DNA from: Amoebophrya sp. A120
Taxonomy: Eukaryota > Protista > Dinoflagellata
Assembly (NCBI GenBank): GCA_905178155.1
Contig: CAJINV010000004.1
Coordinates: forward strand, 2,854,460-2,918,459
Direction: 5' to 3'
Length of the DNA stretch: 64,000 nt
This document shows, one piece after another, positions 4,755-55,800 of the stretch (position 1 is the stretch's first letter; each line of letters opens with the position of its first letter). Position numbers and translations under genes: made by a program. The notes under the pieces are model-generated. The model saw only the letters and a list, made by a program, of their open reading frames with translations. It made no database searches and was not told the DNA's origin.

Positions 4755-7700
4755 TCATGCGCATGCGCATGACATCACCGTACTTTGTTCACTAAACACA
4801 GTTTTTTCCACCTTGGATACCCACATCCGCAGAAACAAGGCGGGCGCCGCACTCTGCGCAGCGAACCAGCCCACGGGCGGGCCCACGCCCGGCACGGCGA
4901 TCAGCAGAATTAATAGCATATGCATTGCAAAAGTATCGCACCCGTATTGCTCGCGGTTATGCATGTGCATGACAGATCAATCTACTCTCTAATCTGAAAC
5001 AGCATGACAAATGCAAATTTCAGTTTGTTGTTTCCGGAAAATTTGCAAATTATGTAATGTTGAAATTTCCACCAACACGATAGTTTTGCAATTCATATGG
5101 CAGCCCAAAACCGAACAGTTCCGGCTCGTGTGCCGAGCGCGTTTGGTATGAGCGTGCGCGGCTACTTACCGCCCCCACCCCCTTTTATTTTTGAAATAGC
5201 CTAACAGGTGCAATGGATAATGGAATGAACGCCAGGGCCAGCAGCCGAGCAAACATGGACTCTGTGCATGAAAACAAATTCCTGGTGCGCCTGGATCTGA
5301 AATAATTTATTTGCATGACACATGGGAGGGAATGAAGCAGAAGTCCTCGTGCGCTGTTCTCATATGTCGCTCCACCGGCGGTCCAGGAAAGGCGTCGGAG
5401 CTGCAGACGACTTAGTGGAAGAAGAGTAAGCGGCGCCACCGGGAGCATTTTTTTCTGATGTAGAATTACCGCCCCCGCCCCGGTTGAACTTTCCGTAGCG
5501 ATTTTGCACGGAAGCAGTGGCCGCTGTCACGAGAGAAGAGAGGGCGCCCGCGCTCTTGCTGAGGAGGCGCTTGGCAGGTGAGGCAGGTGCCGAGGCTTCT
5601 CCATGCTCGAGATCGAATCCGATTGCACAACCCCCCCTCGAACGTCCCCCTGAATTGTGTGATATGAGCCATAAGTAGCTGAGACACACACTCGTCAAGT
5701 AGAACTGTTGTAGCTTCTGCATCACAAATCCGGGCATGCGCATGGGCTTGGCTTGTTCCGCAGTCATTTGATATCATGCGATCAGTACCAAAAGGCAGCA
5801 AGAATAACTCCGCGAGGACTTGTTCGCCTTCTTCTTGGTACTTCTACTTCGCACGTTGAGAAATAAGGAGAACATCAAGGCGGAGTTGTGTTGAACTCGT
5901 CTCGTAGGCCACCAGAAGCAGCAAGATCTTGAAGACCTTGTTCGGGGCCCCGCTGCCGCGCGTCATCACTCCTCATCATCTTCGACCTCGTATGCAAGCA
6001 GAAAACTGCGAAACAAGGTGTAACCTTGTGTACTAGTTGCATATTACGTGGTGATGTGTAAAACAGTTATAATTACTTCTTCTTGCGAATCTGCATGACA
6101 TGTTGCGTCTTTTTAGACTAGTTCCGTACTTTTTTAAGTACTTTCTGGTGCAGCAACAGGCCGGAATTCTGTACAAATAATAAACGAAATGAAATTTGTA
6201 TAACAAGTATGCAAATGTTGTTCCTGCTCCGATAAAAAAGCTACACTCGTCACAGAAGCTACAGCTACTACAGTTACACTACAATTTGTCTCTTGGATAC
6301 GTCGCCATTACCACCTCCGGTGGTGGCAGCCGTCCAGTTTTTTTGTAGCGAAAGTAGGCGTCGCGCGGCACGAATTCCAGCCGACGGTGCTCTTGGTGGT
6401 AGAACAGCACGCAGTCCGGGTGCTCGCGGAGCCGGGCAATGACCGGGTCCAATACCTCGCGACAGAGCGCGGATACGGCGATGAAGTAGGACACAAACTG
6501 CAGCAGGTTTGGCGTCAGGAAGGGAAGGAAGAAGGTCATATGGAAGCGTCAGGATTGAAATCGTCAAAGTTGAAATAACTTGTAATGCATAAAATCGATA
6601 CCAGTTGGAAGCCCAATTTTCAAGCGGTGCATGACAAATTTCGGCAACGTGTAAATCCAGTTTGTCATGCTGTTTTGGGACAGAAGGCGTCTTTTGTCAT
6701 GCTACTTCAGCAGCTCTACCGCACACCCCAAACAGGCTGACTGTCGGCCTCACTTGCCATCCCGGCAAGAGAGGCACTTCATGCCTTGCAATTTATGCAT
6801 GAGAAATTATTTCAACTTTGACGATTTCAATCCTGACGCTTCCATACGTCACGCAGGCACAGTAAAAGGCGCGCTTCAGCCCCAGTTTGTCGTAGATCAC
6901 AAAAAATTGGAAGACCTGGTACCCGTACCGAAATCGCGCCTGGTGCGAGGAAGCAGAGGAGGAAAATGAGGATGATGGAGCTACTGCAGAAGCTGCTGCA
7001 CCAAGACTATGATCGGAACCGTCACCACCATCGTCAGGCGAAGAGCTACTTGCACTGCCCTCTGCGGTACCGACGCCGGTGATTCGGCTATGCATTGCAA
7101 AAGTATGATCCTCGCGCTCCAGAGCTAGTGTGCGCTTGGGCGTAGCCTGTGCCTGCTTCATCGTCCCAAGTTCTTAAAATCACGCCCAGTTTGTAGTGCT
7201 GGCGAAGGCCGCCCCCGTCGTGGGACACTAGATGTAGATTTTTTGTCATGCTGTATTCACTTCAGGTTCAGTAGTTGCACGAGGTGGACGAGCTCGATAA
7301 ATGTTATACTTTGTTTTGCAGAGGGTAGAGGCCTGTTGCAGCCGTTGGTCCTCCACCGAGCGTTGAGAAAAGGTAGAAACCGATGAGCACGAGGACCCCG
7401 ATCTATCCTGTGCAAAAGTATCGTACTCGTATTGCAGTCATGCATTACAAATTTTTTTCTTAAGCTGCGTCAGCATTACAAATTTTATTTCTAATGCTAA
7501 GGTGGAAATTTGTAATGCATTCATAACGTCGAGTACGATACTTTTGCAATTCATACGATCAGGTTCCGCACAACTCTGTAGGCCATGGCGTCCACAGTGT
7601 TCGAAACCGCTGGGAGGGCCTGTATTTGCTCCACGAACTCATCGACGTTGGAAATGGGCAGGGTCGAGTACTGCTCCAGCTCTGGTCGTGCAATTCCTCC

Positions 7701-9034
7701 ACCAGGAGCAGAAAGGCCGCCCCCGGGAGGTGGTCGTCCGGGTGGTCCTGCCCATGCAGGTCGTCCTTCGTCCCCACGACCTATGCATTGTTTGCAAAAG
7801 TATTGTACTAGTATAAATCGCAATACAAATTGGCTCAGCATTACAAATTAAATTTGTATATGCGGATTTACCCTAGCAAGTAGATTTGTAATGCATAATT
7901 GCGATCAGGATCACTACGAGTACGATACTTTTGCACAGGATACGACCACGAGAGGAGCAGCTACTAGAAGAACTACCTCCGTCCAGCATGAGAGGCCGCT
8001 GAAATTTCGCGTTGCAGCGGTGCAGCAGGTCCTTGAGGGCCAGGAAGAAACAGGTATCCAACTTCTTGAAAAAAAGGTACCGGATCAGAAGCAGGTGCAC
8101 CAGGGGCGCGATGCGCAGAAAGCAGTGCAGAAAAAACCACTCGTACTCCGCACCGATATCGAGCAAGTCGCGCGCAGTCTGGTGAAACCGAAACAGGTAG
8201 AGACACCCGGTGAGCCGCTACGAAAAGAAAAAATGCCCGCGCCGCCCGCGCCTCCGATCCCGAAGATCCCGAAGGGAGCAAATGACTTCGCACAAGAAGA
8301 AGAACTTCTCGAACTCGATGAGTTTTTGATTTTGTATTTCTTTTTTTTACAACATATTGGTGCAACATGCCCATCATGCGCTTGTCTTCAACAATGAAGA
8401 ATTATTTCCTTCACTGGACGCAAGTTCTCGATAAAAAAAAAGGGCGATCTTATATTTAACACACTTTTTTCTCTCGGTGGGTTCATCTGCTGGGGCCGGC
8501 TGCTGGAGGCGGGGCGGGTTTTCGTCAGCACGTTGCGTAGTAACAACAGGGGAGACACGAACACCAAGACCGTCAGTGTGAGAAACCCGAGAATCACAAA
8601 GGCCTGCGCCCGAAAAAATTCCAGCAGCTCCCGGCGGATGGCCCGGGACCGAAGCGAAAAAATCAGTCCGTCGCAGACCGCCTTGCGGCACCCGACGAAG
8701 AAATTTCGGGTGAAGTCGAGCACGTACTCCTCGTCGGTGGGGTATCCACAGAGAATCAGTAAAACTTCCCGCACGCGCTGATGTACAAAAGCGGTCTCTA
8801 CTGCACGACAAAAAAAATGATTTTCCTTCATCCTATTGCTATTCAGCATGACAAGCGTCATGCTTCCAGTTGTCGAAATTTTTGATGTATTTCGTACGTC
8901 GTGTACAGGAAATTTGTATTGCATAGGGGGAAAAAGAAATCTTCCACGACCTTCAGTTCCAGACTGTCGCGCCACTTTTGAGGCAAAAAAGTCCGCTTCC
9001 ACCGACTGTAGTAGGTCGTCCTCCTGCCGCTCAT
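4755..9034 (-). CDS. Multi-pass membrane protein, EI24/CysZ-like; multi-exon, ends uncertain
   Basis: Spliced segments VVEDFFFPTDEEY..IFSLRSRAIRRELLEFFRAQAFVILGFLTLTVLVFVSP, CACVTFFLPFLTPNLLQFVSYFIAVSALCREVLDPVIARL and EPELFGFGLLLILLIAVPGVGPPVGWFAAQSAA resemble the EI24/CysZ helix pattern (..E.LD....R; GFG...LLL.IP.VG). Joining them into one gene is inferred. Confidence 0.45.
4919..5097. mobile_element. Introner, family A (TAT-N5-gcaaaagtatcg)
   Basis: DR tagca/tggca; joins FGFGL|LLIL. Confidence 0.8.
6539..6846. mobile_element. Introner, family C
   Basis: 40-bp TIR tatggaagcgtcaggattgaaatcgtcaaagttgaaataa; DR ggtca/cgtca. Confidence 0.9.
7404..7555. mobile_element. Introner, family A
   Basis: DR cgatc/cgatc. 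Confidence 0.85.
7782..7942. mobile_element. Introner, family A
   Basis: DR cgacc/cgacc. Confidence 0.85.
8743..8925. mobile_element. Introner, family D
   Basis: tatccacag..aaatttgtattgcata; DR tgggg/ggggg. Confidence 0.75.
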
Positions 9035-10293
9035 AGTACCGCTCAAGGAAGACGATGTGGACGGCGCGAGCCTCGGCGTCAAGAATATAAACCGCAGCCT
9101 CATGTTCGATTTCTTGTGCTGGTATCACAACTGTAACTTTAGTTATACGCTTTTAAAGGTTAAAGATGAAGACCAACAGTTTAATATTGCCCATACAACC
9201 AGAAGGAGAAGTCAAGGTGAAGGTCAACAAAGAAATACAGAAATATATTCTACGTCTACAAGGAAAAGGCGGGAGTCGAGGTCGCTTCAACCTTGACTTT
9301 GTTCTTTGTCACGCACAACCACCGGGGTAAACTTCATACATACGAATCGCACCTCTTTGTTCTTCTTGCGCATGTGACTGATAAATTTTGATGGAGGCTG
9401 GCTTCAGATAGATCCTGATACAGGCAGGTGATAGATCTTAAAAGAGATAGATAGATCTTACCGACCTGGTGGCAACCTTTCTTATTGCCAATAAAAGTGT
9501 AAAATTTTTGTGAGATCGTTCGGGGGCGGAAGCCATACTCCCTCCACACTTCCAAGGTGGCGGTCAAAGTGATCATCTTCATCTCAGATGGAGATGGACT
9601 GGAAGCTTGTACCAGAACTCTAGGATTGCAAAAACAACCACACGAGCATATCTATCATTCAACGTGAAGACGTCGAAACCTCCTCGACATGAATGAGAAA
9701 AGACGATGAATCCGAACCACATTGTTTTCACTTCTGATCACGTAAGAAAGACCAGAGGACGACTAGGACCATGAGAAGGGGACCTACATATAAAAAGCGC
9801 GTGGCATCTTATTTGTAGCATGGGGCAAATACGCTTAAAGTTCAACGACCATGTGCTCGTAGTACTTTACTTATGTAGAAGAGCACGAGGTGGAGACGAT
9901 GCTGAAGAACAATTATCCGCGGCCCCTGTTGCATTTTATTTCATGCGGACCACGCCGGAAGTCTGTGGCGTTCGCACGATCGTAATTGTTGCAGAAGCAG
10001 AATGCGCTTGATGAAGATGTTGCTCAGTGTGACTATCGGCCATTAAAATGGGCATATGTAGTTGAGCACAGCGGGTCGCGCAGAGACAAAATGGAGACAG
10101 CACTTGATCTTATTCTTAATGTTTGTTTCCTTGTAGGCATGTGCTCTACTGCAACTGTCTCTACGTGGGCTAGTATGCCATCCGCACATGTCTCTGCTTT
10201 CGGGGCGGACAGCAAACAGAGATTGTGCTGGATAGAAAGATAAGAATTGGCGCCTTGATGTTCTCATGATGTTCTCTACTACAACAGAACAAC

Positions 10294-12816
10294 TTACTCG
10301 CCACCTGCTCCACTTGCCGCATCTCCCGCCACCGCTTTTGCTTTTTCCCTTCCCCGTCCTTTCCGCGTGCTTTTTTTATTCTCGTGCTTTTGCATCGGCT
10401 TCGAAGTTGTTCTGCTCTTCTGGTTCATTTTATTTCCACTCGCCGCGTTGTTCTTTTGGGTTGTACCAGAGGATGATTTTTTCCATTTGTCTAACACCGA
10501 AAGCTTCTTCTTGTCCATCTTTGGATGTTGTTTCATCGTTTGATTTCCCTTACCTCCTTTGTTCGCTTTAGAAGTCGTGGCGCTGTTGATTTCCACCGTT
10601 CCCGGGTTTCCTGCAGTAGATGCTGTTGAAGACCCTTCTTTTTTGTTCTTGCGGGACCACGAGAAGGGGTTAAACTTCGCCCTACTTGTCGTATTTTTAG
10701 AGCCATTGGTTGTTGAGGCGGAAGAGGTTGCTCTCGTCCCGTCTACGTCGGCTCCTTCGATCATATCGACATCGTCGTCCTCCTCGTCTTCTTCTTCCCC
10801 TCCGATTCGCTTGACGACGCGGTCCTGCTTTCGTTGCTCGAATTGCTCCTGTATGGATTGCAAATATCATGTCTGGCACTGGCTCTCTGGAAGTACATTG
10901 CGAGATCATCTGTGGTCAACATGCTAGTTTGGCAGGTCGCGGACTCTGAGCTCTGTATACATAATTTTTCTTGCGTGGGCACCAGGAGGACCTCGTGTTG
11001 TCTGTCATAAGACGCTGTAGTGTCTCATGCGAAATTATACGCAAAGCAGAACGACCGCGAAAAAATATGTCATGCTTGGTCGTGGCGCACGTGGAATAGT
11101 ACTTCAGTGCGCTCAAACTATTCATCGCTGACATGCATCTTCCCAACTTTATTCCAGACCTAGATGAATATTTGCGATGCATATCCCGCTTCGCGCGCAG
11201 CTGCTCCCGGTGCTGCTGGTCCGCTTCCAGTTTTTCCTGTTTCAGCGTCTTCTGCTTTTCCGCGTCCAGCATGCGCTTTGCCACCTGCGCCTGTTCCCGC
11301 GCGGTCTTTTGCAGGAACTCCTGAAACAGGATACTGCCCTCGTAAAACCCCGTCTCGCCCTTCAGCAATTTCAGCGTCATCCGCGGCCCGATCTCCACCA
11401 GTTTCACCGCCACGGAGTTCTTCTTGCGGCGTGCCGCATCCTCTGCCCCTGAATTCATTTTGGCGTGGTGGGCCGACGATATGTCGTGGTTACATACGTT
11501 TTTTTTGCTTGTGAGCAAGATAGTACATTAAGTAGCGAGAACGTCTCTGCTCATTGAGTAGTTGCCCTTCATGAATGTTGATGCACTACTTCTCATCTTC
11601 ACTACGCATTAGCACTACTGGAAGCTGCCTTCTGCCCCGTGGTTCAACATCTTGGTGGAACTACCTCAGTAGAAGATCGAAGAACAACTCCCTCGGATCG
11701 ACGCAGCGTCAGTAAGTAATACTGGCCGCAGCTGCTCCCCTCCTGATTTAAAAACCACCGCGCGGCGGAATTTGAACAGAGAGCAACTACTAGAAAACAA
11801 ACTACGTTCTGGTTGTACAGTACAACTTGTACTAGGTCAACACAACACCAACTCGTACCATAATTTTCCGCGTCCCCCTGTTTCCTTCTCGTCGTCCAGC
11901 CCGGGGCGGTCTCTTCCAGCAGCATGGACTCCCCACCCTCGCTGTCTGAGTCGCACCCGCCCGCGCCCTGATTCAACAGGTAGTTACACACGTCCTTCTT
12001 GCGGTTCACAAAGGTCGGCTTCATCAGCTTCTGCACAGTGCGCGACACGTCCGCGGCGTGGTTCTCGACGATTCCGTAGTGCCGGAAGTAGAGCAGCTGC
12101 TTCTTCTGGTCGTAGTTGAACAAGGCCACGCGACGGCACCGCTTCGTGGAGAACGTGTTCACGTCGACCGCTGGAAACATGTTCTTGAGCGCCGTGGCGA
12201 CCAGGTGCAGGCTGGCGGCGGACGTCGTAGAGTTAGAAGATGCGGAGGTTGTACTTGTTGGTCGTGTGGTCGACGTGGTGGTCCCACTGCTAGTAGCGCA
12301 ACTACTGTTCTTGTTCCCCGCAGCATCCACACCAGCCTCCTCCTGTGCAGCAATATCTTCGGGAACAACATCTTGCAACCGCATGCCGTTCAACAACAAC
12401 AAAGGCGGCTGCAGGTAGTCCTTGGATGCGTCCCGGGGCTTCTTCTGGAAGCTCTTTACGTCCTTGCACGTGGTGAACTCCTTCAGCACGAAGGTCAGGG
12501 TGGGGCCCTGGGGCAGCTTGCCAATCTTGAAGTAGCAGTAATCCGTGTTCTGGCTAAATTGGTTCACGTGCGTCACGTGGAAATGCGAGGCCACGTTCAC
12601 GAAGTCGCGCATCTTGTTCATCCGAGACTCCTTCAGCTTCAGGGCCGAGTTCGGAGCGCACACGTGCCGAAAGTCCTGGACCAGCTCCTGGAGCGTTTTA
12701 TCCACTTTGCCCTTCTTCACGACAAAGCATTTTGGCGTCTTGCGCGTCTCTTCCTCGCCCGCAGCCGCGACCTTGTGCGTGCGGGTCTTCTTCCGCTTGT
12801 TGCCGGCACGGGGCAT
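10294..12816 (-). CDS. PPAN: Brix-domain 60S ribosome biogenesis protein Ssf1/Peter Pan
   Basis: N-term MPRAGNKRKKTRTH..PKCFVVKKG..LVQDFRHVCAPNSALKLKESRMNKMRDFV, KLPQGPTLTF, CRRVALFNYD..YFRHY, and Brix sigma70-like motif VKLVEIGPRMTLKLLK. Introner 10852-11183 joins AKR|EQFEQ. Confidence 0.9.
10852..11183. mobile_element. Introner, family B, decayed
   Basis: tatggattgcaaatat..atatttgcgatgcata; DR tcctg/tcccg. Confidence 0.8.
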
Positions 12817-14253
12817 GGTGGTTAGACTTAGATAGGAGTTGTAGACCAGTGATATACGACTAGGGGCGAAACTGCAGCAGCGCTACAAAGTGCTTCAAGA
12901 ACAAAAGTCTGGATGAAAACAGATGAAGTTGAAGGTACTAGCGCGCATGCCATGCAAGGAAGAACTTATTCGGTATTAAAATTGCTGTTGCTCCGCATCA
13001 TAACATGGAATAAACAAGGGTATATAAAATCTTGTCTTCGAAGGATCGTTAGGTCGCTCCAGATACAGAAACAGTTTCCGTACAACTTCTATTCGCTTGT
13101 TCTGTTCTATATTTCTTGCGCGACGAGAGATAATACCATGTAGGTAGACCTGTGCAGATATTATTAGACAGAGTAGATGTAGTCGTGCCGGCTGCACCAG
13201 GACAAACGATTCTTGCTCCGCGTGTCACTTCTAAAAATGGTCTTGTCTACTTCATGATTCTGCGGATGCAGACGCCGGCAAAACCTATTCCAATTCGAAT
13301 GAATGTCACCAGGACAACATCGTCGAGAGGAAAGGCTGCAGTTTATTTCTTGATCAACTAATAAAATATGCACCAATTTATCGATGATAAAAATTTGCAC
13401 CACCAACTGAAGATCGCCACATTTGAATTTCTTATAAGGATCTTCATCTTCATCTATTAACATTGACACGGATTTTTCAAGTATGAAGAAGTTCTCACGC
13501 GTGGTTACACTGATCGCTGTTCTTTTTACACGTTTTAGTATGCAGAGTCAATATCACATTCCATGGCCACAAGATGATCAACAAGCTGCTTCGCGTGACA
13601 AGAAATTTTGATTTTCGTTTAGTTCGACGAAGTCCTAGATACTGCTATAGAAGTATTCATTGGAGGAATGATCTTCCGTGGCGGATCTGTGCTGCAAGAA
13701 GGAAGCGCCAGCTCCCGATCAGTATAACGCTTGAGGGTTGAGATGAAGATCGCTTGTACGTGTACCGACAAGTGAAGCAGGCATAAACTGATAAGTCATT
13801 TATACACTGACCTGAGGCTAATTTTTCACCGATGCTGCATTTTGATCCGCTCCCTCGTAGTTAGAACAACATTTTGTTTTTTCAAAACAATTCTGCAATA
13901 GCGGCGGTACAACCTTAAGCTTACAGACCAGTCGAAGGAGCTCTGCGGACCTCCTCGGCTGCAGTACAATGGACACATCAAGGTCCATCACATGATCTTC
14001 GGTGGAGTAGACGCATATTATTTTTTAATATAATACAACAGAGGCAGCTGTTGATTTAAATTCATTTCGGCCTAGTACAAGAACTTCTTGGTGGTCCTCG
14101 ACGTCTCAATGTTGGCTTCAAAGTGACAAGAAGGACGAAACCGAAAGTGGGATATTCCGTTCTGTTCCCCAATATCATCGTCTGGTGGATCACCTAGCAA
14201 GACTTCTACCCCGCCACACACGAAACAGCGGCATCTCCTCAGCTCGTCCTGGT

Positions 14254-17200
14254 TCACTGCAGCAACTGCCTCACGTGGTGCGGGATCAGGTGCAGCGGCT
14301 GCGTCGCGCAGTACTCCTTCAGATAGTTTTTCCACTCGGGAAACTGCGCCAACTGGTCCTCCAACTGCTGGAGCGGTAGGAGCGACAAGACCTTCGCCGG
14401 CACTCGCTTGTCGGCCGCCTTTTCGAAGGAATACTTGATCGACCACCGGATGCCCTCCTGCAACCGGGAGTGTTTCTCGGAAAAGATGATCGGCTTCTTC
14501 ACCAGCGCGGGGAGAATCTCGGTCGAAATGAAGTCGTTTAAGAAGTCGGCGTGTATCAACTGGAAAAGTGTCTGGGTCTGGAAGGATGCGAACTTGTGAC
14601 GCGTGTTGCGGATCATACAAAAATCTGTGTTGCGTGACTTGCAAAAGGTCCCCATTTATTCTGGCCATGCTGAGAGGGCAGCATTTCTCATGCAGTATAG
14701 GCATCGCCAAGGCGCTGCAGAACTACCTGTGATGCTATGCTTTGCATTCCAGACTTGGTGGAACTTGGAAAAACTGCATGACAAATCTCGTAATCTTCCA
14801 GAGGCAGACCCAGACTACATATTTATATATTTGCATTTGATAGTGTGCTTCTGCAGTCGAATCAACGTCCGGAACATCAAGGTGGGGAACCCCACCGCCT
14901 CTTCCTCCTCTTCCGCCAGACTCTGGAGCGCGAACACGTACCGCGAGACATCAATTTCGTCGGCCTCGAGCAGCTCGTGCATCGTGTTCAGACAAATCAC
15001 CGCCTTGGCGGTCGGGATATGAATTGCAAAAGTGTCTGGAGAGTCTGGAAGAATGCAGATTTTTGTCATGCTGTTTTTGCATGACACAAAATGTCTGTCA
15101 TGGAAGCCCTAGCATCACAGACTTCGAGAAGTAGCTTCCGAATTGCTTAATCCGCATGACAAATTCCCCATTTTGGTGACAGGAAGTGGGCGCCTTTTGC
15201 TGCCTGTGCATGAGAGATTTGTCTGTGTTGTGAAATGCGCATCACATCCAGACCCAGACATTTTTGGCACTTGATACGGGACCAGGTCGCACAAGGTCGT
15301 GTTCAAATGGTGGATTTCGCTGAGTAGCTCCGCGTATGAACTGCAAAAGTATCGTATTCGTATAAATGCATTACAAATTTCCTCGGCATGAGAAATAAAA
15401 TTTGTAATGCGGATTTACCTTAACAAAAGGATTTGTAATGCATGACTGCAATACGAGTACGATACTTTTGCACAGAATACCGCGACCCCCAGACAGTTGG
15501 CGTCCACCTCCCCCACCAAGGTTTCGTGGTTGGAACTCCGATATGCATTGCAAAAGTAATATCGTACTCGTCGTATGAATGCGTTACAAATTCCCCCAGC
15601 GTGAGAAATAAAATTTGTCATGCGGATTTGCCTTAAGTCAAAGATTTGTAGTGCAAGACTTGCATTCACATTCTCATTCATACGAATACGATACTTTTGC
15701 ACAGGATATCCGGACCAGGTGGCGAATGATCCACTTCACGTCTTCCCCGCTCATCTTGCTCGACGTCAGCAAATCGGTTAAGTACCGCACGCAGTCGTTC
15801 CGCGGGACCAGGGCGATGATCGGCATCAGCAGGCGCGGGTTGCCCAGACTCTCGTACTTGGCCAACACCACGTCGCGAAACCGGAAAGGCAGGTTCATGG
15901 GGCGCGCCTTGCGCTCCTCGTCGGTGCTCGCCTGCGCGTACGTGTCCAGTCGCTCCTGCAGCAAAATCTGGAGCATTTTTCCGACCAGGTCGAGCGCGTT
16001 TATGGCGCTCTCAACCGTTACACTCTCAACTGTTACATGAATTTGTCATGCAGAACTACCATCAAGATTCACACTGGAAAGCTGCTTCGCATGACAAATT
16101 TGCGAAGGGCTAAACAGCACCTAAATCTGTGCAAAGCCAACCTCTCCCCTTTCACTTTTCCAATTCTTGCATCACAAATCCACGTAACAGTTGAGAATGT
16201 AACAGTTGAGAATGCCATAGCGTTCACCCGCTCCGTGGCGCCGATCACCTCCAGCAGCTCCGTCCCCTGTTGCGCCTCGGGGTCAATGTGCTTCTATGCA
16301 TTGCAAATGTGTACGTAGTACTATGGATCGTCTGGAGTTGGAGACATGCAGACTCGTGACGCGGCGCATTTCAGATCGTTGTACGAAAATCTGTCATGCA
16401 TAAACAGCAAAAGCCTCCCGCTGTTGCGCTTCTTGTCACCGAATAAAGAGGACGCTTGTATTTGTATGAGTTCTGCTCATGCCGATGCCCATGCGGATCA
16501 TTTAGGCATAATTTATTGGCAGGCCTTGTAAAAAAATGTGGTGCTAGGACAACTTGCATGCCAGACCAAGTTGTGCAGGGTGATGAAGCAAAACCAGCAT
16601 GCCAGAGATCTGCACGCAACTACATGATCCAGGCCCACCAGTAGACATGATACTTTTATTTGCATTTGATAGCTTCACGGCCTCGCCAATGTGCTCCGCG
16701 AGGGTGTCCTTCACAGCCTCCAGTATGAAAGCCTCACAATGGAAATCCTCAAAGTGGAAATAATTTGTGACGCATGAAATGCAAGGCGAAAAAGACTGTA
16801 TTGCAGAGGACACGACAATGGAGACCGACTATTGTCCTGCTAGGGGTTCAGAATTGGGCTGCTGATTAGCACGAGAAAAGGGCACCCCTTTGCCTACCTA
16901 GCATGACAGACATGCTTTGAGTGCCCGGAAAATTTGCCATGCGCCGACTAGAAATGGCACTTCAACTGGAGCCGTTTTTTTGCATTACAAATTATTTCCA
17001 CTTTGAGGATTTCCAACCTGACGAGGCTTTCATATCCAGAGGGCCGGCCTGTTGCTCCGCGATCGAGTAGACCTCCAGCAGCTGTGTGAGCAGTAACGGT
17101 TTCTTGATGCTCATGGCTAAAAACAGCCAGTGGCGCTGCGTGCCCGGCACGACGTGGGGGTTGTTTAGAATCTCCTCGACAATCTGCCGCACGTACCCGG

Positions 17201-27295: not shown

Positions 27296-28159
27296 TGTCC
27301 TCTTCTTCGGCGTAGTACGACGAGGCTCTTCTGTTTTATTTCTTGCAAGGGCAATAAAGAAGCTCGTAAATTTTTCGCAGTCAAGGTGAAGAAAAATCCA
27401 CTGCAACCAATTCAGTAACAGAAGCACTGACCACTCTGGATCTGGTGAAGACGGTGTAGCTCACACTCATCAAAATGCTCTCTAGAGTTTGATGTTCCTT
27501 TTGATGCCCCATTATCTTCTGTTCTATGTGTCACAATGAATTCTACAGCGTCCGAGGAGGCGGATGTAATACTATCACGCACTCGCACCACGCTTTTCCG
27601 TGTTCCAACTCCAACACCAGACGAATTATAGACGCCACGAAAACAAGAGGCTATGCAGATATCGCTCGTACTTCGGGGAACACCACTTATCAGAAACGTA
27701 TTCGTAAAGAATCATTTTCGCTAGCACTGCTGCTGCGACAGTCTCGCGAGGCGGGGGCTCCGGCAAGGGACTTTTACACTTTAGTCGTCCGCCGCGTATT
27801 GTGATATTACTTCTTCTTGAAAAATACATCGCGAGATGTAGTTCAAGGTGGATTATTTTCACTAGGATTTAGATTTACATCGTCCTCGCCGACTTGGAGT
27901 TGTTGCCTGTAGTAAAAACCGGTGGACCACCAGCACTCAAATTCCTCCTTTCATGTCGCACCAGCAAAGTCTCGATCTTCAGAAGTAGGCCATACCCCGC
28001 CAGAGGATAATTTCTATTGCGGTTCTGCTGCAAAATTCTTCTGTGTGCCACGAGAACTGGTGTGCAGCACTATTTATTCATCTGTGCGACAGTGGTACGG
28101 AGGAGTCGACCTGCTCACGAAGTAGACAGTAGGCCCTCGTAGCAGTTGTACTTACCCCG

Positions 28160-45400: not shown

Positions 45401-45549
45401 GATGCGGATGAACGCGGGCGGCCCCTGCCCTCTTCTTGTTTGATCCCGTCATGATCTTCTGGTGCGCCGGTAAGGGCCACTCTCTCGTCCTCTGACGGCC
45501 CGTCCTGTTCGTCAACAGCAACAGGACCGTAGTTGGCCGCGGCCATCAT
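39496..45549 (-). CDS. Equilibrative nucleoside transporter (SLC29/ENT) with very long low-complexity N-terminus and loops
   Basis: FLGLETLLPYN (TM1), STGQGLAG, LFLCYVTTFALFPG, IFDVVGR, LRIAFIPLL, FAVTNGYLST after removing introners at 41079, 40490, 40228 and 39699. Confidence 0.85.
39699..39851. mobile_element. Introner, family A
   Basis: DR gtagc/gtagc; joins TNGY|LST. Confidence 0.9.
40228..40436. mobile_element. Introner (tatcMaagaaaaaaac TIR)
   Basis: DR tctga/tctga. Confidence 0.85.
40490..40641. mobile_element. Introner, family A (reverse of 15335/30639)
   Basis: DR agagt/agagt. Confidence 0.9.
41079..41330. mobile_element. Introner, family B (252 bp, reverse of 19060)
   Basis: DR tcttc/tcttc. 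Confidence 0.9.
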
Positions 45550-46877
45550 GGACCGATCTGTATCTGCTCCGTCGTTTATTTTTTTGTGAGTAGAGCGCGT
45601 GCGCGACTGGGACTGCTGTGAGCTGGTCGTGGAGAGAAGTAGTTTTGGTTTTGCTCTTCAGGATGCAAAAATCCTGGAATTCATTTCAACTACACTCTCA
45701 AAAGAACCAGAAGCCTTGCGTTCTCGTCGCATAACCGTGCGTCCCGCTTTTCATAACTCGGATGAATGTGTTGAAGGGACGACGAGGAAAGGGATACCAC
45801 TTGATATGCGGAATGATTGTCACGAACTGGAACAACAATTACACCTTCGAGATGCAGTGTGGAGGTCCAGCACAGCAGCGGCGCTACAGGCCGCAACACA
45901 GACTCACTGCCGTGTCTTTCTATATCATGTGAGTATAATGTGGTCATTCAAGTGCTAACACATCCATCCGGCAGTTAAGATCGAAATTCAATCATCTGTT
46001 CCGATGTACAATCACTAGTAGCGCGCGCCATAATAATTTTGTCCCACCTGTGCATTTTGTTCATTATCTTCACTGTTCGTCTGCGTCCACTGCCATAATT
46101 AGAAAACGGCGAGTGATCATCTCACTGTGCCTACGCCGGGTTTCTCTTTCATCTTCAATAAAAATTGACTACTTCCATCGGGTTTGCGACGATGAGAACG
46201 AGTACTCATCGAAACATTTTTTCGTCTTTGTCGTTGGTAATTATGGTATCATGCACGAAGCAATTGAAAAACCCTGTATCACTCTTGCGGCTGACGCTGA
46301 AGATTATATTAGCAGCTAAACACTATTCATAGTTTTAGTTTTTTCTGTTCGAGAAAAATCATTATTCTTGCAGTATTTTTCCACTATTCCCGAGTTGTGT
46401 TGAGACGTCGTCACACTCTGCGTCTGCAACGCCGTGTAGGACGAAGACGATCGTCCGTTTCGTGGAATGGTGTGGCGTGGTCAACGTGATAGATGCTGCA
46501 AGGAGCATATGATGATGAATTCGTGATAAAATTGAAACTCGCTCTACTATCTTAAAAGACCTTTATGCTCCGCTGCCTGCAGTTTCATCACGAGTTCCTT
46601 TCCATTAAGTCGCTATGTTTAGCAAGTGAAAAAAACATCCAAAAGACAGTTTGGCCCTGGACGCGAGCCGCGAGGCAAATATCCTCATACTTTGGCAGAA
46701 AGGAGCCGCCTAGTGAAAACTTGCAGCACACCAAGATGCTTTCCGGTACTGTAGTTGTTGTAGCCATGATTTTCACTCTTGCGGTGAGAAATTGTTTCAA
46801 ACGTATACATTCCCGTCCCCATCCTGTAGCTCTTTTTACCGTCGCATTTCCAATGCTTCGCCGTCAGCATGATCTTC

Positions 46878-49800
46878 TCATTCCGAATCCGGTTTGTTTC
46901 GTCCCCCAGTTAATATGCTAAAAATTCGCTGTGTCTCCTCTTCCGACGCAAACAATTGCTCTGCCGGCCTTGCTTTCGCCGCCGTACTGGAGGAGGATGG
47001 CGCTATGGGTTGCGGTGGCGCAGGAGCGGAAGTTGTGGGGAGATCGGAACTATTCTGCATAATTTGGTCTCCAACTACACCAGCAAGAACACTCGGAGTA
47101 CTACTAGTACCACCCGCTTGCTGTTTTCGGGGACTTTGCGAACTTTTCCGAAGTTCTGCCTGAATGCGGGTTACCTGGTGCGCCAAAATCCGCTCATCTT
47201 CGCTCAAGCGCAACGCTGCGGCAGGGCCACTCGATGTCGCCTTCGCGGCTTGGCGCTGTTGATAAACCTGCTGCTCCGGTGGATACGCGACCTCGGCGGA
47301 AGATGAACCTTGAGCGTGTTGCTGCATCGTCCGTGAGGACGCGGTTCTTGACGGCGCTGGTGCACCATAGCTGCTCATAATTTGATGCGACGACGTTGGC
47401 TGTTGTATCGTTGAGAAGAGAAACGGGTCTTCGTTCTGGAAAGACAACTCCACACTGGCGGTCTTTTGCGAAGACGACGTCGACGCGCGGAGCTGCGGCT
47501 GCGCCAGCAGAGACTGCAAAGCAGTGCTGTAAAATCGCTCGTACTCCGTGCTCGACTTCAGCTGCTGTTGCTGTTGCTCTCCCGCGGCCAGCCCGGTTGT
47601 TGCTGTGGACGCCTTGGACCCACCCCCTGAGAAATCCGTGGCTGCTGGAAGGCCAACCGTAACATTCGCAAGCGGCGGTTGTAGTTCCGCGCTCGCTCCA
47701 CTGGCGAACAAAAACGGGGACTTCGGTTGGTGTTGTACTGCGAAACTTGCACTGCTGCTCGATGCCGGCACGGAGGTGGGAGAGGTCGTGGCCCCTCCTG
47801 CTGTACCAAAAGGACCAGCTGCTGCTCCAAATAAACTAGAACTACTGTTCGTAGTTCCGACGAGACCACTTCCAGCTGCACTCGCGTTGTCTTGCGTCAT
47901 GCGCTTCCGGAGGGAGTCCAGTTCCGCCATGTTTTGCAGGTGCAAAGCCCGGAGCTGGTCCGATTCGTAGGTTTGTAACTCTGCCTCCCCGCTTATCCAC
48001 AGCAAATTTTCCGTGCACGACGTCCAAATGCAGTCTCGCCTTCAATCCTAGTCTAGCATGACAAGTTGGACACTGCAAGTTAGCGAAATTTGTCATGCAT
48101 TTTGTACATGTACGGGAAATTTACATTGCATACCGCTTTCCCAGCGCTGCTCGTAGAAATTTGAAGGACCAGAACCTCCTGGTGCAGGCTGATGTACTAT
48201 ACCAGAAGTACTAGCCCCGGCCACGTCAAACCTAGCGGCGGTCGCAAACCCGGTGACGCCCGCTCCCCGCAGAACCGGCGGGGACAGCGACCGCGCGGGC
48301 GAGATTGACCCTCCACCACCTCCGAAAATTGACGTTGCAGTCGTTGTCCCTCCAATTACTCCGCCGTCGCGCGACGTCCGCAGCAACGTACCCTCCACGA
48401 CTTCCCGCTCGCGGCTGGCGGCGTTTTTTATGGAGGAGACCCGTTTCCCTATTCCCTATTCTATAAAGCGTTCTATAATACAGCGAGGCACTTTGCACGA
48501 GATTCAGCTTAGGCCACTGGAAGGCAATGCCTCTCTTCACGCAGGATAGGCGTTGCGGAGCCGTGGCAAAACTTGCGATGATACAGTTCGCAATCCAGAC
48601 CTTCTGGCGCATGCCGGACAAGCATCACAAAGCGCTACACTTTTCCAGACCCAGACCAACCCGCGCGAGGGTCTGCGCGAAGGTCCGCGCGACACCATGT
48701 CCAACTATGGAGACAATTTTGGGACCGACCTATTGCCGGTTTCCCAAAATTGTCTCCATAGTTGGAAGGGGGGTCGCGTTTGACCCCTCAGTCAAGTCTG
48801 GAGACAATTTTGGGAGGCCGAATTTTCTTTGCGTTTCTATAGGAGCACTTTTGCCACAGTTGCGCTGACAGTCCCCAGCTAAAAGCGCGACCCCCTTTGG
48901 CTTCTCTTGCTCCCACCATAGCTCAAAAACAGAAACCAACAGGCGCCAAACTCAAAGCCCCCAAACGGAGACACTGAGAACTCAACAAAATGGGCAGGGT
49001 CCAAAACATTGGAAAAAGTGCCGCGCCATTTGCCAGCGATTTTGCCTTGGGACGCTGCCCACACACGGAAAGTCGCAGCGCCGCAATAGCTTCCCAGCCT
49101 GATGCCAGTCGTCGGCCCTGCCGGGTCTTCGTCGCTTCTGCCGGCCTACCGGATCGCGCCTGGTCGCCATTACCCCTCCGGGGCTACCTCTCAGCCCCAG
49201 GGGATCAAAATTTTTGAATTTGGGATCCGGAGACAAAATTCCCGTTAGTACGCGACGTCCGCAGCAACGTACCCTCCACGACTTCCCGCTCGCGGCTGGC
49301 GGCGTTCTTTATGGAGGAGACCCGTTCTTCCAGCTGGGCCAGGTTGTTCTGCAGCTTCGCTTCTAGCCACTCAATGTCCTGCAACGATTTCCACACGACA
49401 GGGTTATTATCTCCAGCACCGTTTGGTCGGCTCGTCGCGGCACTGATTGATCGCGCTGGCGACACGCCCCCGCGCAGGTAGGAGGACGAGGAAGCTGCTC
49501 CTGCGGCAGCGGTAGATGAAGTTCCACCAACGACTCCGGCTCCTGATAAGGTCCCGTAGTTCGGGGACCATGCGTCTTGCATCACGACGTCCCGGGAGGA
49601 CGGGGACGGCCGCTCCAGCTGGTGGTGTTGAAAATCAGTGTTCATAATTCTCGAAGACGTTGTTGACGATGCGAGAAGGGAATTCACCGTCACTGCAGGC
49701 TGCTTGTTTTTATCTACTGCTGATGCGTCGTTCACCTCGCGCAAAACTTCTTGGATGTCGGGGAACAGCTGCAGGTCGACTACAAAGCATCAAATGCAAA

Positions 49801-52800
49801 AGCGTCTGGGTCTGGAACAAAGTATACTTGTCATGCTAAATCTGAACCTTCGCTACCCGCCATGCTAAATCTGAATCATGTAAAAGCTCTGTGTTGTATG
49901 ATTGCCAAAAGCTGTCCACTTTTGACCTAGTCGACAGGTAGTTTCTCATGCTGCAAAGGCATGATAGAACTCTCACAGAATCTGTCATGCTATGTCCTAC
50001 ATGCCAGACCTCCTGGGACATGGAAAACCTGCATGACAAGTCTGGCACTCTTCCAGACCCAGACACTTTTGCAGTTGATAGAAAGGCGACGACATCGAAA
50101 ACCCCGGTGACCGGGTCCCACCATGTCGGATGCTGTCGCAAGAAACTCCAGTAACTCTCCGGTAGCGGACTCTGGTCCGCTTCCGCGAGCGCGAAGTCCA
50201 CCAACCGACGGAACTCGGACCACCGCAGGGGAACCACGGAGCTGTTGTTTTTCGCCAAAAAGTCGAACAGCTTCGTCCGTAACTTCAGCCAGCAGGGCTG
50301 CAACTTTTGCGCGACCGCACGGAGGGAGAGGTAGAACAGCAGCGCTTCGACCGTGTACAGTGCGTCCATGGGTTATGCAACACAAATCTAGCATCGTACT
50401 ACACGGACCATCTGCTATCAAAAGCTGTGGGGTAATGCTGAGTTTGATTGTAATACCAGCAGCAAAACTTTGTCATGCAATAGTGCATTTTCATTTTGTG
50501 CGTCCTGTAATACGGGAGTAAACTTCCTGTAGATATCGGCTTCTCGCGCAAATGGTGGACGACAGGGACGGATTGGTGCAACAAAGTCGTGAAAAATGAG
50601 GAAGAGGAAGTTGTGCTAGTCTTCACGGCAGCAGAAGTTGCACCAGCATCATCACCCACTGAAGAGGACACCATCAACCCCTCCAGCAGGCACTTGGGGA
50701 CGATTGAAGTGATCATGTCTTTCAAGACGGTTCCCTCCGCGCCGCCCTTTCGGTACGAAGCGTCTTGTATCCGGGTGATCAGGTTCACCACCTGTGGCTG
50801 CGGTGCCGCAGCAACCCCTCCTCCAGATGAACCGGCTGTATGCAACGCAAAAGTTGCATCGCTGTCGTACTAGTGCTGCGGCTATTGATAAAGGTAATTC
50901 TAATTCTAATTGCATATACAAAGTTGCTCAGCATGATCATGATGTAATGCTACGAAAGTACACCTTCGGAAAAAAATGTCTTGCATGACCGCATTTTTTA
51001 GTACGACGGCGATAGTTAGTACTTTTGCAATGCATAAGCCGCTCCACCACCACCTTGGCTCGCGATCTGCTCGTCGGCGAGCAACTTGCACAGCACTTCC
51101 ATGATCAGCTCCAGGGGCGGACGCAGTTTTTTCGCGGCGGCGATCGTGGGCGGGCCGTGCCCGAGCACCCAGCTCCACTTGGTTTGGGTCGCCACGCTCG
51201 GGATGCTGTAGGAGGGGGTCACTAAACTGGACGGGAGCATCAACATGGGAGCAGGTGGTCCACCACGAGCAGTTGTTCCACCACCCGTAGGATCGGAGGG
51301 CACTGAAATTGCAGCACCACTCAAGGGCGGGAACGACGTCGTTGGGTCCACCCGCAAATCCGTTTCCAGCCCCGGAACGCAGACTTGGTAGGAAAACAAA
51401 AACTTTCCGACGAGTTCCGTTTTGGAGGAAAAGCTGCCCCACGCGCTGGTCTCGATCGCACCCACGTCCGCGTAGAGTGTCATACTGCCCTCGCCGATGC
51501 AGGCGGGAGCTGTGGTAGGAAGGAAGTTCCTCGTTCTTCAAAATATGAGGATTTTGACTAATGGCCGCAGCTGTAACTCATACATAGAAATAAATACTTT
51601 CTGGTTACGCGACAGTGACTACATCAGAAAAAAACAAGGATAAAACCCAATCCTACCCGCCCCACTCCCGCCGATTTGAAACAGCTTGGCCGCCACTCGC
51701 ACGATCTGCTCTGGGGCTGGGATGGTTTTCGGTTTCGCGGGAATTGCAATGGTATCCAGGAAGAAACTAAACCCATCCCCTGGAGATCATCATCAACTTT
51801 TTGCATGACAGACAATGCATCTGATGCACGTTTTGCATCATGACAAATTGGTGGACAGGAGAGTAGACGGGTGTAGTTTTTCCTCAGTGGATAAATGGGT
51901 ACCAGTTCGTCCACCGGCCCGAGTTGCGCCCAACTAGAGTTGGGCGCGTCCAAAAACGCGGTGACTTGTAGCGGCAAACTCCGGTGGTTGGTAGTCGCCC
52001 CGGCGGTGGTGGTCAAAGCGTATTCCACGTAGTAGCAGACATTGTTCCCCACCATACCGTTCCGGACCACGGCGCCCTTCAGCCGCAACAGCATCTTGCG
52101 CTCGTGCCCCGTGATCTCCTTCGGCAGAGGCGGTGGAGCAGGAGCCGGTGGAACAGCAGCGCCCGGAGCAGGAGCGCCAGGTTTCGGTACGGCCGACGAG
52201 GGTTGCGCCATCGCCGCGCTCCCGTACACCGAGGACACGGCGCTGCCCCCGTACACCGAGGTCGGCCCGCCGAAGGAACTTGCAGAGGGCGCTTTCGGCA
52301 TAGCGGGCAGAGTAGAGGATCCGACTCCTGGTTTATTGCTCGCAGCTCCAGATGAGTCCGCGTTTATCCCGGTCAGATACAGCAAGCTCATCACATCCGC
52401 GTTGGGTAGGGTGATGGAAAATTTCACGTCAACGGACGCTAGGAACTCCCCCGCACTTTGCTGCAGAAACAGCTGTTGTTGGTGAGCAGAACTCATGGCG
52501 CCGGACGGGCCGGCCATTTGCGCGGAACTTGGCTGGGCCATCATCGTGGTTCCGGCTGAGGTGGAAACCGCGACGTTAGCCGGCCCACCGGACGTGAAGG
52601 TCGCGCCTTGGGCAGCTGCTGCACCAGGGCCAGTTGTAGTACCTCCCATCGGTCTGTTCACACCTCCCGGTCCTCCTCCGGCGGGAAACGCAGAGGAGGA
52701 ACTGCTGCTCTCCGGCCCGCCTACCTTCGCGTGGAACTGGGCCTTGCGGTTCAACACCAATGCGGATTGTGCCTTGGACGCGTCGAGTTGGCTGTGCAGC

Positions 52801-55800
52801 AGTTTGAGCGGGAAGGTGTCCTTCGCGAGGCACACCTCCACCGACTTCGCGCGGTCCAGCTGGTGGAATTCGTCATTCTGCTCGATTACCAGCCACAGCT
52901 CAATCACGCCGATGTCGGACTTGAGAGCCTCGAAGAACCCCGGGGTCGGCGGCAGCAAAGGGGATTGCCACTGCCAGTATCCACAGAAAAAAACCCATCC
53001 ACATCCATTTTTTGCATGGCAAACACATGATTTCATACGTGTTTTGCATGACAAATTGGATGTGGGTTGGTTTTTTTCTGTGCATAGCCAGTCGCCGAAG
53101 TCCAGAGCAGTGTAGCCTGGTTTGCTGGTTGTAGCGGGAGTTGACCCTGATGAAGACCCCGTGGCGGGAGCTTGTCTGAAATTGCTCATGGAGCTCGTAC
53201 TTGACGCCGCTGGAACAACACCAGCAGGACCAGCCGCTTTGCTTGCTGAAGCACTTGGCATGAAACTCAGGGACGCGACCGCGGCCTTCGCGGCCGAATT
53301 CGCGACGGAGCTGTCCATGGACTGCGCCACCACCGGCTGACTGTCCGTCCCGCCGGCCATGCGTGCTTTCGCTGCCGCCACTGGGGATAGGTCGCCGTTT
53401 TGCGGAGGAAGCGCTGAAGAGGGCTTCATCGCACTTGTTGTACCAGTAGATGCGTTTGCTGCAGAAGCTGCGCTAGTAGTTGTAGCTCCTGTGGGACCTC
53501 CTGCTGCTGCAGCCGGTGCGGCAGCAGTAGCTTTGTTCGCAGCAGAAATTGCTCCAGCTGCTGTAGGTGCTGGTGCTCCTGCTGGTGCGCTGCCGTTTTT
53601 ATTACCTGAAGACGAGGAAGCGGACGACCATCCCAACAACAAGGATGCCAACGACATGGGCTTCGGCTCTCCCGAAATCCAGGCGCCACCGCAGGCCGCC
53701 TGCAACTTCGGGTGGTTCGGGAACAAACCGATGCGCAGCACCACGCGCACACTCTGGATGTCCAACACGCTTGTGGACACGCTGGGTTGCAGCGAGCTTT
53801 TGTACCACTGCTCCGCGAGCCGGCGGAACAGATCGGGATTCAACTCGCCCCTGGACAACCCAATCTCGATCCCCACCGTGTTCTCCACCGTTTGCTCTGT
53901 TCGAGACACACGGGAGACCGCACCTCCACCGGATAGACATGAGCCCCGCACCGTGGAAAGTGGCGGGAAAAACACCATGCCGGCACCACCGGCACCACCA
54001 CCAGCTCCAGTGGAAGATGATGACATCGCAAACGCTGTGTCTGCTTGCGCGGCGCTCCTGTAGTCCCCGCTTTTTCTCCTCGGTAGCGAAGAGTCAAGTG
54101 CTGCGCCAGCGCCGTTCAAAGTTATTCCTGGGAGAAGCAGGTCAGCGCTTGCTCCTGCTGGTCCTGCTCCACCACCCCCTCCCCCGCCAGCGCGCATTTG
54201 GTACGACAGCAGGCTGTTGCCTTCAAACGTGGTCCGCCAACGCGGGGCCTTTGCGGTGCAAGCCCGGCGAATCTGGTAGAACAGGCGGACCACGACGCTG
54301 CCAAGTCTCGTCCCGTCACTGGACAACACCGGCACCGGGTTTTCCCACGTGGCGCCCAGCAAAGCCTCGGCCTTCCAACCGCCTTTGGCCTCGGCAACGT
54401 CGTCCAAGAACGCGGCGATTGCCTCCGTCGGAAAGACGCAGCGACCGACGGTAACCGCAGTGCTGCTGCTGGAAGCGGTGTTATCGAGGTACCGCAACGC
54501 GCTACGGGTGTTGTTCACCGTCGTCCCTGCTGCTGTTTTATCAAATGCAAACTACATGATCTCTACGTCTGGAACTACGTGCTAAAGTTTCTTGTCAACT
54601 ACATGCAGGTTTGGCATGGCCCAGATATGGTCTGGAACTACGCGTACGCAGGGCCCCGCATCACAAGTTTTCATGCGACGGATTTGCAGTGCCTGTTGCG
54701 CATGAGAAATCTTCATCTCTCAACAGCGTGGCAGATGAACATGCATTCTGCCATATTACGCATTACAGGTTCACTCGTCTTGTGTGTCCTCTCACAAACA
54801 GCATCACAAGCTACTCGAATCTGTATTCCAGGAGATGTTCTTGACCCAGACATCATGTTTGCAAAAGTTCATATGCACCTGTTGTAGCTGTGCCGTCGGA
54901 AGTGTAATTGCTCCCACCGCGGTTCTCCGGTAAAACACGCACCACATCGAGCAACAGGCCGCAGGAAAGCGTTCCTAGCCGCACTTCCTGGATGAGCAGG
55001 TCCGTCAGACTGTCCCCCGCATTTGAGGCCAAGCAAAACGTGTGCGACGCAGCAAAGTCCAAAGGGTAGAAGCCACCCGCTTGGCTACTCGTGGTTTGCG
55101 CTTGATACGTCGTGCCGTGGCAGGCGTAGCGGAGAAAATACCGTGGCTGTGCGCCGCTTCCTCCGTTTTCGGAAGTGCCGGCAGGGAGCGACATTTATGA
55201 AAGGGCACAAGACCGCAATTGTTTATAGTGGTCCCCCTGCTGCGCCTAGTTCTAACCAGGGGGCACGGCCAGCAAGAACAGAAACAGCTTTCCCTATATT
55301 TATATTTCCATTTCGTTTTCGCTTTCGCAGTTTGCATGACAAACGAGGGCGACGACTCGTGTTCTTGGGTTGTGCGCTTTCATAAAGTCAAATCGGTTCC
55401 CAGAACGCGGATTTCTAGCTCGTGTTCGTCATAATCAGAGGTGATGAGAGGAAGAAGGGAGAGCCGACGGAGAGGGTAAGAATCTTTATAGCCGGTCTGC
55501 TGTTCATCTCCTGTGTCGTCTTTGATAGTTCTCGTCAACGTCGGACTACCAGCAGCAGCGATCCCACCAGCTGCACCTGCACCTCCTGTGTAGCGGAAGT
55601 AGAAGTTTGTCAGCGCCGAAGCGTTTTGCAGCACCTGCAGGCACTCGCTTTCCGTCAAATTGCACTTGTCCAGCAAGTTTTGCAGCAGCTCCTTGCTGTC
55701 CACACTGTCTTGGTCTTGGTCAAGAAGAAACGAGGACACTGCGAGCTTGTTGTCCGCCTGCTGAAACTTGCGCCAGGTTTTTTCTACATCGGTTTGCTGC

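Follow-up and report, generated by a model that had tools for sequence, protein, structure and literature searches.

The 64,000-nucleotide stretch of DNA from Amoebophrya sp. A120 analysed here (contig CAJINV010000004.1, positions 2,854,460 to 2,918,459; hereafter the window) raises the question of why one short motif, GCAT[G/T/C]ACA, is repeated on both strands of its introns and introner elements, and what reads it. This organism has been described as having approximately 30,000 introners, no recognised transposase, and splicing that dispenses with U1 and with fixed end dinucleotides, the mechanism being left open in the portion of the account available to us (PMC7789003). The motif is a real feature that was partly misdescribed in a first-pass annotation of the window, which took it for either a transposase-binding site or a splicing signal. 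The best explanation that the sequences suggest, to which we give about an even chance, is that it is the binding site of one protein that binds double-stranded DNA, that introners probably depend on arrays of it for transposition, and that it probably serves the host as well.

The window has 143 exact copies of the motif, of which the plus strand carries 83 and the minus strand 60, whereas dinucleotide shuffles yield 7.3 ± 2.8. The variable position is G in 90 copies, T in 30, C in 23 and A in none. With a refined consensus, GCAWBASARRT, the density is 2.9 sites per 100 bp; shuffled sequence gives 0.07. There is no exact copy in the two long exons listed in the table below or in any of the seven intergenic stretches of the window examined, and in intergenic and coding DNA the motif is not enriched (intergenic ratios of 0.8–1.2 for its core). 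Repetition on both strands within elements, and near absence from those exons, had both been noticed in the first-pass annotation, and both observations stand. All annotated genes of the window lie on the minus strand.

The elements that carry the motif are 110–480 bp long, start with TAT[G/C], end with [G/C]ATA, and have terminal inverted repeats (TIRs) and 5-bp flanking duplications. They show the features of introners of the miniature inverted-repeat transposable element (MITE) type, namely TIRs, a duplication of fixed length, dispersed noncoding families and precise removal from the mRNA. Additional DNA came from 31 of the 64 parts of a metagenome collection, scanned with a three-site pattern of the window that has six matches there and none in shuffles. 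At least 151 stretches were returned (loci L025–L174), all from contigs prefixed JACKZZ01 and totalling 486 kb, and they share the families of the window at 68–97% identity. A two-site pattern gave 24 matches in viral contigs, isolated pairs without TIRs that were judged to be chance. The window and the 486 kb contain 541 TAT[G/C]…[G/C]ATA elements, 48 of them in the window, and 18 families of at least four members account for 436; the intergenic stretches of the window hold none. The 5-bp duplication, which belonged to the element-calling score, is perfect in 381 elements, has one mismatch in 135 and two in 25, and the RNA junctions carry 5–6 ambiguous bases, in line with it. A host-gene strand was given to 509 elements, the assignments within contigs agreeing for 456 and disagreeing for 7. 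That the motif is common to different families, as first noted, is correct; that these families are otherwise unrelated is not, since their 18 consensuses still join into three groups when the motifs are masked.

The arrangement of the sites follows a spacing grammar. Sites in the same orientation recur 31–33 bp apart, converging ones 16–17 or 34–35 bp and diverging ones 15–16 or 45–48 bp, and 37 of the 64 adjacent pairs in the window fall into three 3-bp classes, where 3 would be expected. When distances are dyad-corrected by shifting the reference point one base into the motif, the 63 pairs of sites in 14 family consensuses group at 10–11, 18–22, 30–33, 39–43, 49–55 and 59–65 bp. The best period is 10.5 bp, equalled by none of 300 random placements, and this phasing persists without the 30–33 class and inside each of two family groups. 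Of 36 consensus ends, 33 have their first site at, or close to, 32–36 or 40–47 bp from the element end. Function in either orientation together with a B-DNA helical phase would be explained most simply by a protein on double-stranded DNA. The motif could also be a cis signal in RNA that is read as UGUNAUGC, either as a branch point or as an enhancer of splicing, and its presence on both strands would then allow either orientation to be spliced; in single-stranded RNA a phase of 10.5 bp would be meaningless.

The strands of the sites bear on the same alternative. An RNA signal would be consistent with the slight preference for the UGU reading (UGUNAUGC) that recurs in the data, with the window introns that have a single reading (10 against 2), and with the presence of CAUG in both readings when the variable base is G. 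However, among the 509 elements 49 lack a UGU-reading site, 65 lack a GCA-reading site (GCAUNACA) and 13 lack either at the strict score, so that neither reading is obligatory; the 28 RNA-supported introns comprise 10 with the UGU reading only, 2 with the GCA reading only, 10 with both and 6, one of them non-canonical, with none. In canonical introns the distance to the 3′ end is wide (19–170 nt), old introns are equally enriched for both readings (21 vs 21), and families with all strong sites in one direction insert in both orientations (16 vs 10; 7 vs 2). A spliceosomal branch point, as the first-pass annotation had proposed, was rejected on these grounds, and an RNA signal of any kind is in our judgement highly unlikely. 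A reverse-splicing, RNA-mobile introner was set aside as well: orientation is not inherited on trees, where in all 4 families its changes are as frequent as with shuffled labels, and 5-bp duplications are present.

The substitution spectrum at motif sites shows no difference between the transcript strands, and the test that gave this result had power, since it did find an asymmetry at one TIR position. In the largest family (e.g. 39699–39851 and 30639–30783), a T-to-C change at the 21st base of the TIR occurs almost only on the arm that forms the intron 3′ end (55 vs 9 on one arm and 22 vs 6 on the other, p 5e-10; seen as A-to-G some 21 nt ahead of the element end), and it recurs on the family tree. 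This asymmetry is a real transcript-direction signal and could perhaps mark the branch region; its origin through purging of cryptic donors was not supported, and TIR pairs show no general G-U wobble excess beyond one position.

Plus and minus copies might alternatively matter as paired stems of a hairpin in the intron RNA. The RNA of the introner 39699–39851 is indeed predicted to form a single long hairpin (z −4.1), and the fold predicted for the largest family has two opposite sites base-paired. The variable base of opposite sites nevertheless does not covary (0.52 observed, 0.54 expected), there is no general excess of G-U over A-C, and 24 of 33 motif-bearing canonical introns have a single site: what is conserved is the sequence and not the pairing. 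The hairpin idea is therefore largely refuted, and we hold it to be extremely improbable.

The history of the sites points to transposition. Mismatch to the family consensus is 5.7% in the motif, 9.7% in the TIRs and 19.4% in the spacers. On family trees, with 145 copies that match the search pattern left out of the rate estimates, the motif-to-spacer rate ratio is 0.09 for internal branches as against 0.39 for terminal ones (p 1e-11). Its terminal-branch rate of 0.035 per site compares with a neutral rate after insertion of 0.04–0.05, derived from duplication mismatches by codon position (0.043, 0.041 and 0.100). As the motif is conserved on internal branches and nearly neutral on terminal ones, the site would be needed for propagation. 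Spacers were no different between copies split by duplication mismatch as a proxy of age. Like known subterminal repeats, the sites stand at a fixed distance from both ends and are conserved in mobile lineages; redundant sites are lost near-neutrally in young copies, and the motif in canonical introns without TIRs is more intact than neutrality predicts.

Those canonical introns were obtained with a simple home-made gene finder, which yielded, from 61 sequences, 165 predicted GT-AG introns lacking similarity to the families. The set analysed consists of 88 AT-rich predicted introns starting with GTA; another 71, GC-rich and probably largely false, contain two sites. A site is present in 33 of the 88, with 42 sites in total against 3.5 expected, 21 of them with the UGU reading (2.3 expected) and 21 with the GCA reading (1.2 expected); a stricter score leaves 14 and 7. 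The motif discovery that the first-pass annotation recommended returned top de novo 6-mers that all derive from the motif, G occupies the variable position at 22 of 24 canonical-intron sites against 46% in elements, and some sites retain partners at the grammar spacings. From these sequence comparisons, the motif seems to be kept by the host in TIR-less canonical introns, on both strands. As a separate observation, many predicted canonical introns of loci L027, L034, L037, L046, L054, L055 and L085 have an A/C-rich, AACTA(T)CAG-like tail and no pyrimidine tract; this tail is a candidate branch or acceptor signal of canonical introns.

Two further readings divide the evidence differently. According to the first, the motif is a subterminal transposase-binding repeat only, and its TIR-less copies are relics of extinct introner families without host function. 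The contrast between internal and terminal branches, the near-neutral loss after insertion and the constant distance of sites from both ends, for which the hAT transposons offer a precedent in the part of the source seen (PMC3143072), all fit it, as do a neutral simulation that at 0.3 substitutions per site matches the number of exact sites per intron and a weak TIR score that remains in 26 of the 88 canonical introns. Relics should nonetheless contain more one-off than exact sites, by 2–3:1 at 0.3 substitutions per site, and 3.1–3.8 is predicted by neutral decay of the present families at matching TIR loss. The ratio observed is 0.7, or 0.86 without the 14 introns that have any blast hit (95% interval 0.09–2.07, the upper bound of which touches the value for 0.25–0.3). 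In addition, blast would detect remnants of the sampled families (99% at 0.3, 88% at 0.4), and the motif-bearing canonical introns lack element ends (G/C at +5 in 2 of 33, SATA in 2 of 33). We regard this reading as unlikely.

According to the second, the motif is a host intron mark only, bound by a factor coupled to chromatin or transcription, and introners keep arrays of it since marked insertions are tolerated or better spliced. The de novo 6-mers agree with it, and so do the donors of those introns (GTATA/GTATT, unlike element ends), the position of 7 of 21 UGU-reading sites at 25–34 nt from the 5′ end (1.5 expected), and the 316 of 343 family elements that join coding frames. Against this stand the RNA-supported introns (6 of 28) and the elements (13 of 509 at the strict score) that have no site, the near-neutral decay of redundant sites, and the extra constraint on internal branches, which is most simply ascribed to transposition. 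A mark of this exclusive kind appears decidedly unlikely. A fuller version of the DNA-binding reading, in which the host protein marks introns and passes them co-transcriptionally to a spliceosome that lacks U1, and in which introners spread through the genome with phased arrays that would serve both their transposition and their clean removal, is in our view an unlikely one.

Several points weigh against the preferred reading of one site for a DNA-binding protein shared by introners and host. Sites that read UGUNAUGC are commoner (861 vs 676) and marginally better preserved (per base, 6.8 vs 8.6%; p 0.007 for an odds ratio of 0.78, and p 0.028 by permutation); the UGU-rich orientation is found in 111 elements and the opposite one in 82, and outside families the bias was 80 vs 44 initially and 46 vs 32 after fuller masking. 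Thus, of the strand bias first claimed, a small sense preference (about 56:44) survives and exclusivity does not, and even a small preference is unexpected for a purely DNA-symmetric site. The spacings are fitted just as well by about 16 bp if a different centre is chosen (0.63, vs 0.59 for 10.5), the linkage of masked families into three groups, with doublet spacers alike at 32% against 26% when shuffled, implies that spacings were inherited and maintained and did not evolve independently, and the constraint on length within families is weak (0.39 vs 0.50). Regarding the rates, terminal branches contain unsampled transposition history, and the neutral rate is rough because duplications took part in element calling. 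The canonical introns are predictions of a gene finder that recovers 15 of 28 junctions exactly (7 of 8 canonical ones), and 55 of the 88 have no site. Finally, Pfam detected no transposase or integrase in 9 open reading frames (ORFs) of long elements, 20 ORFs of the window and 19 of 31 ORFs of the repeat-flanked inserts described below, and Farhat et al. reported no transposase for A120 and ruled out general mobilisation by one, as far as the accessible part of that paper goes (PMC7789003), whereas the motif behaves here as a site selected by transposition. Of the transposase-binding site proposed in the first-pass annotation, what has held is therefore its DNA-level part (phasing, strand symmetry and conservation in propagating lineages), and the transposase itself was not found in those searches.

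How introners are removed appears to be a separate matter from the motif. Splice evidence was taken from contigs of three runs guessed to be RNA (X1, X2 and X4), with at least 28 junctions (one set being 15 of 53 joints) within 3460–12900 and 14400–34300. Raw RNA reads X9–X11 match only short pieces of elements (200 reads in total); in run X9, apparently from another strain, these are 50-nt pieces at 20898–20948 and 32299–32349 with a depth of 60–110 and foreign flanks, which correspond to related element fragments within abundant transcripts. Among 28 RNA-supported introns, 20 are non-canonical and 8 are GT-AG. All 20 permit a register with UA at +2,+3 and [C/G][A/G]U[A/G/U] at −8 to −5; it is the only one possible at two junctions (4132–4478 and 7085–7328), and at one junction two are possible. 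We infer that a non-canonical intron comprises the element preceded by a single base of the duplication and followed by four bases from its other copy (N/UAY…SRUW-NNNN/). Canonical donors are likewise mostly GTAY, and when the register is applied to the 509 elements, 13 read GT-AG by chance. The termini being symmetric, this register alone accounts for splicing in either orientation, and carriage of the motif on both strands, which had been put forward as the explanation of orientation independence, is not needed for it. A scan of the window with Rfam gave no match and no small nuclear RNA (snRNA). A 975-codon frame without stops (51624–54551) spans the introners 51753–51893 and 52978–53086, so that their retention alone would not truncate it.

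The same introns allow the six lone sites of the first-pass annotation (5313, 6093, 31133, 33496, 51803 and 55334) to be placed, together with the other features of the window (see table). All six exist and read UGUCAUGC in the transcript, that is, from the minus strand, and the counter-example admitted near 7244 was confirmed. Loss of TIRs applies to 31133 and 33496; recognisable ends remain around the other four, so that persistence in TIR-less introns fails for four of the six examples although it holds generally, the motif being more intact in TIR-less canonical introns than neutrality predicts. Their common sense orientation reflects a selected list, as follows from the counts of both readings given above for RNA-supported and TIR-less canonical introns.

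Features of the window (positions are those of the whole stretch; an empty strand cell means that none was given)
Feature	Position	Strand	Remarks
Exact GCAT[G/T/C]ACA sites	5..63503	both strands	n=143, restricted to introns
308-bp introner	6539..6846		four-site chain 6581(-), 6629(+), 6663(-), 6695(-); spacings 48, 34, 32
151-bp introner	17640..17790		sites 17674(+), 17709(-), 17741(-); spacings 35, 32; perfect 5-bp duplication
282-bp introner	18385..18666		family with all strong sites in one direction
153-bp introner, largest family	39699..39851		sites 39736(+), 39771(-), 39802(-); spacings 35, 31
TIR element	51753..51893		perfect 5-bp duplication; contains site 51803
Element with matching arms	55196..55384		decayed duplication; contains site 55334
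115-bp introner	61161..61275		two sites, same orientation; family member at 52978-53086 in opposite orientation, gene on same strand
Old non-canonical intron	4132..4478	-	single register (TAT preceded by 1 nt, ATA followed by 4 nt); one weak site, none exact
Old non-canonical intron	5143..5365	-	junction in RNA contig; TIRs decayed apart from TATG/CATA ends; 45 nt from 5′ end to lone site 5313
GT-AG intron	5987..6300	-	decayed TIR element 5991-6299; 4/5 duplication; lone site 6093
Old non-canonical intron	7085..7328	-	single register; site 7244 reads GCAUGACA
Non-canonical intron	8215..8540	-	spliced, no motif site; RNA contig
Canonical intron, Brix-domain gene	11449..11858	-	no motif; RNA contig
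TIR-less GT-AG intron	30992..31214	-	RNA contig; lone site 31133; RNA fold unremarkable (z −1.0)
GT-AG intron	33428..33570	-	RNA contig; lone site 33496; element similarity down to a 26-nt match
Canonical introns	32508..32713, 30335-30587, 32847-32974, 33733-33899	-	no motif; RNA contigs
Long exon	35582..38167	-	nucleoside-transporter-like (below Pfam cut-off); 0 sites
Long exon	41331..45549	-	0 sites

In the model that we favour, phased sites (the first 32–36 or 40–47 bp from the ends, doublets 31–33 bp apart) would let the protein bend an element of 110–310 bp, and bending would join both ends at an integrase-type transposase that leaves 5-bp duplications. Such an enzyme is suggested by these duplications together with the TA termini. 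Either the transposase or some co-opted factor of the host could be the binder, and one or two sites might be kept in old introns for a role in chromatin or during transcription. Splicing is likely directed by the symmetric termini (N/UAY at the 5′ side, SRUW plus 4 nt at the 3′ side), which would explain clean removal either way.

Some larger structures were noticed beside these elements. Introners with internal insertions of 0.2–0.6 kb, and with sites kept at both ends, occur in the window (19060–19536) and at L046:6184-6998, L042:3808-4438 and L045:4568-5189. The L046 element is 815 bp long and has a 5-bp duplication; no integrase domain was found by Pfam in it or in two other long elements, although its length would fit family 38 or 196 of A120 in the part of the published table available (PMC12130899). 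Direct repeats of 50–75 bp surround inserts of 0.7–1.4 kb at 1972–2020/3402–3452, 28166–28225/28925–28980 and 48371–48445/49251–49326; one insert contains N and tandem repeats, and another contains half an introner. The 19 of their 31 ORFs that were scanned gave no Pfam match, a plasmid search with one insert gave no match either, and they are possibly artefacts of assembly gap filling or another mobile element.

The comparison with published systems places the elements among known kinds. In the parts of the sources seen, the introners of A120 agree with those of the window in having an inverted repeat of TAT, seven variable bases and AAA, direct repeats of 3–5 bp, non-canonical ends and co-oriented genes (PMC7789003, PMC12130899), and the family lengths of 106, 149, 209, 252–260, 278 and 305 bp agree with the 38 of 58 rows consulted of the A120 table (PMC12130899). 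The same dataset, in its available portion, annotates A120 family 38 as 'Ginger, 5-bp TSD, TA/TA termini', TSD being the target-site duplication. Ginger2/TDD elements share the 5-bp duplication, as in TDD-4/5 and within a range of 4–5 bp, but their termini are TGTNR and not TAT[G/C], according to the section of the source consulted (PMC2836005). Introns derived from elements with TIRs and TSDs, with ends other than GT-AG, are known from Fritillaria (PMC11282704) and euglenids (PMC13326754), whereas an internal phased DNA motif is not mentioned in the passages of these two papers at hand.

For the motif itself, the closest parallels seen in excerpts of the literature are the CG/AATTCAT repeat of the hAT element Herves (PMC3143072) and the repeats of piggyBat (PMC11707139), short motifs distinct from the TIR that are repeated inside both ends in both orientations. 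The present motif differs from them in being common to families with different TIRs, in filling the whole element of 110–310 bp in helical phase and in persisting in TIR-less host introns, with a 5-bp duplication and no transposase found. The ApiAP2 site TGCATGCA/GCATGC, from the apicomplexan sister lineage, shares the GCATG core and is a double-stranded DNA site, but ApiAP2 sites are enriched in intergenic DNA, in the part of the source available (PMC6631176), and the motif is not; canonical introns (14.8 kb) contain only 2 copies of the palindrome TGCATGCA, intergenic DNA contains none, and an ApiAP2 promoter motif was rejected given the intergenic ratios of its core. The TGACA site of TALE homeodomains was discarded as well, TGACA/TGTCA alone not being enriched (ratio 1.2), and an RBFOX-type UGCAUG reading was considered and set aside. 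No literature joining Amoebophrya and N6-methyladenine (6mA) was found. Searches for an earlier account of the motif, its spacing or the exact splice register came up empty in the accessible text of PMC7789003 and PMC12130899, figures (snRNA alignments, logos) and two supplement files being outside this scope, in passages of PMC12005148, PMC11282704, PMC13326754 and PMC9860276, and in library searches, subscription papers being outside them. Introners and subterminal binding motifs are known kinds, and the shared phased motif, its grammar and the register would be the new part.

One shared, helically phased motif unites the many introner families reported into one system. It could serve as a bait for isolating the responsible protein, and would thereby give a direct handle on the spread of introns. 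Its retention in GT-AG introns suggests either that a transposon signal is being domesticated or that a host intron mark has been hijacked, and the inferred register, with one nucleotide of the duplication at the 5′ side and four at the 3′ side, would replace the 'variable borders' of these introns by one testable rule.

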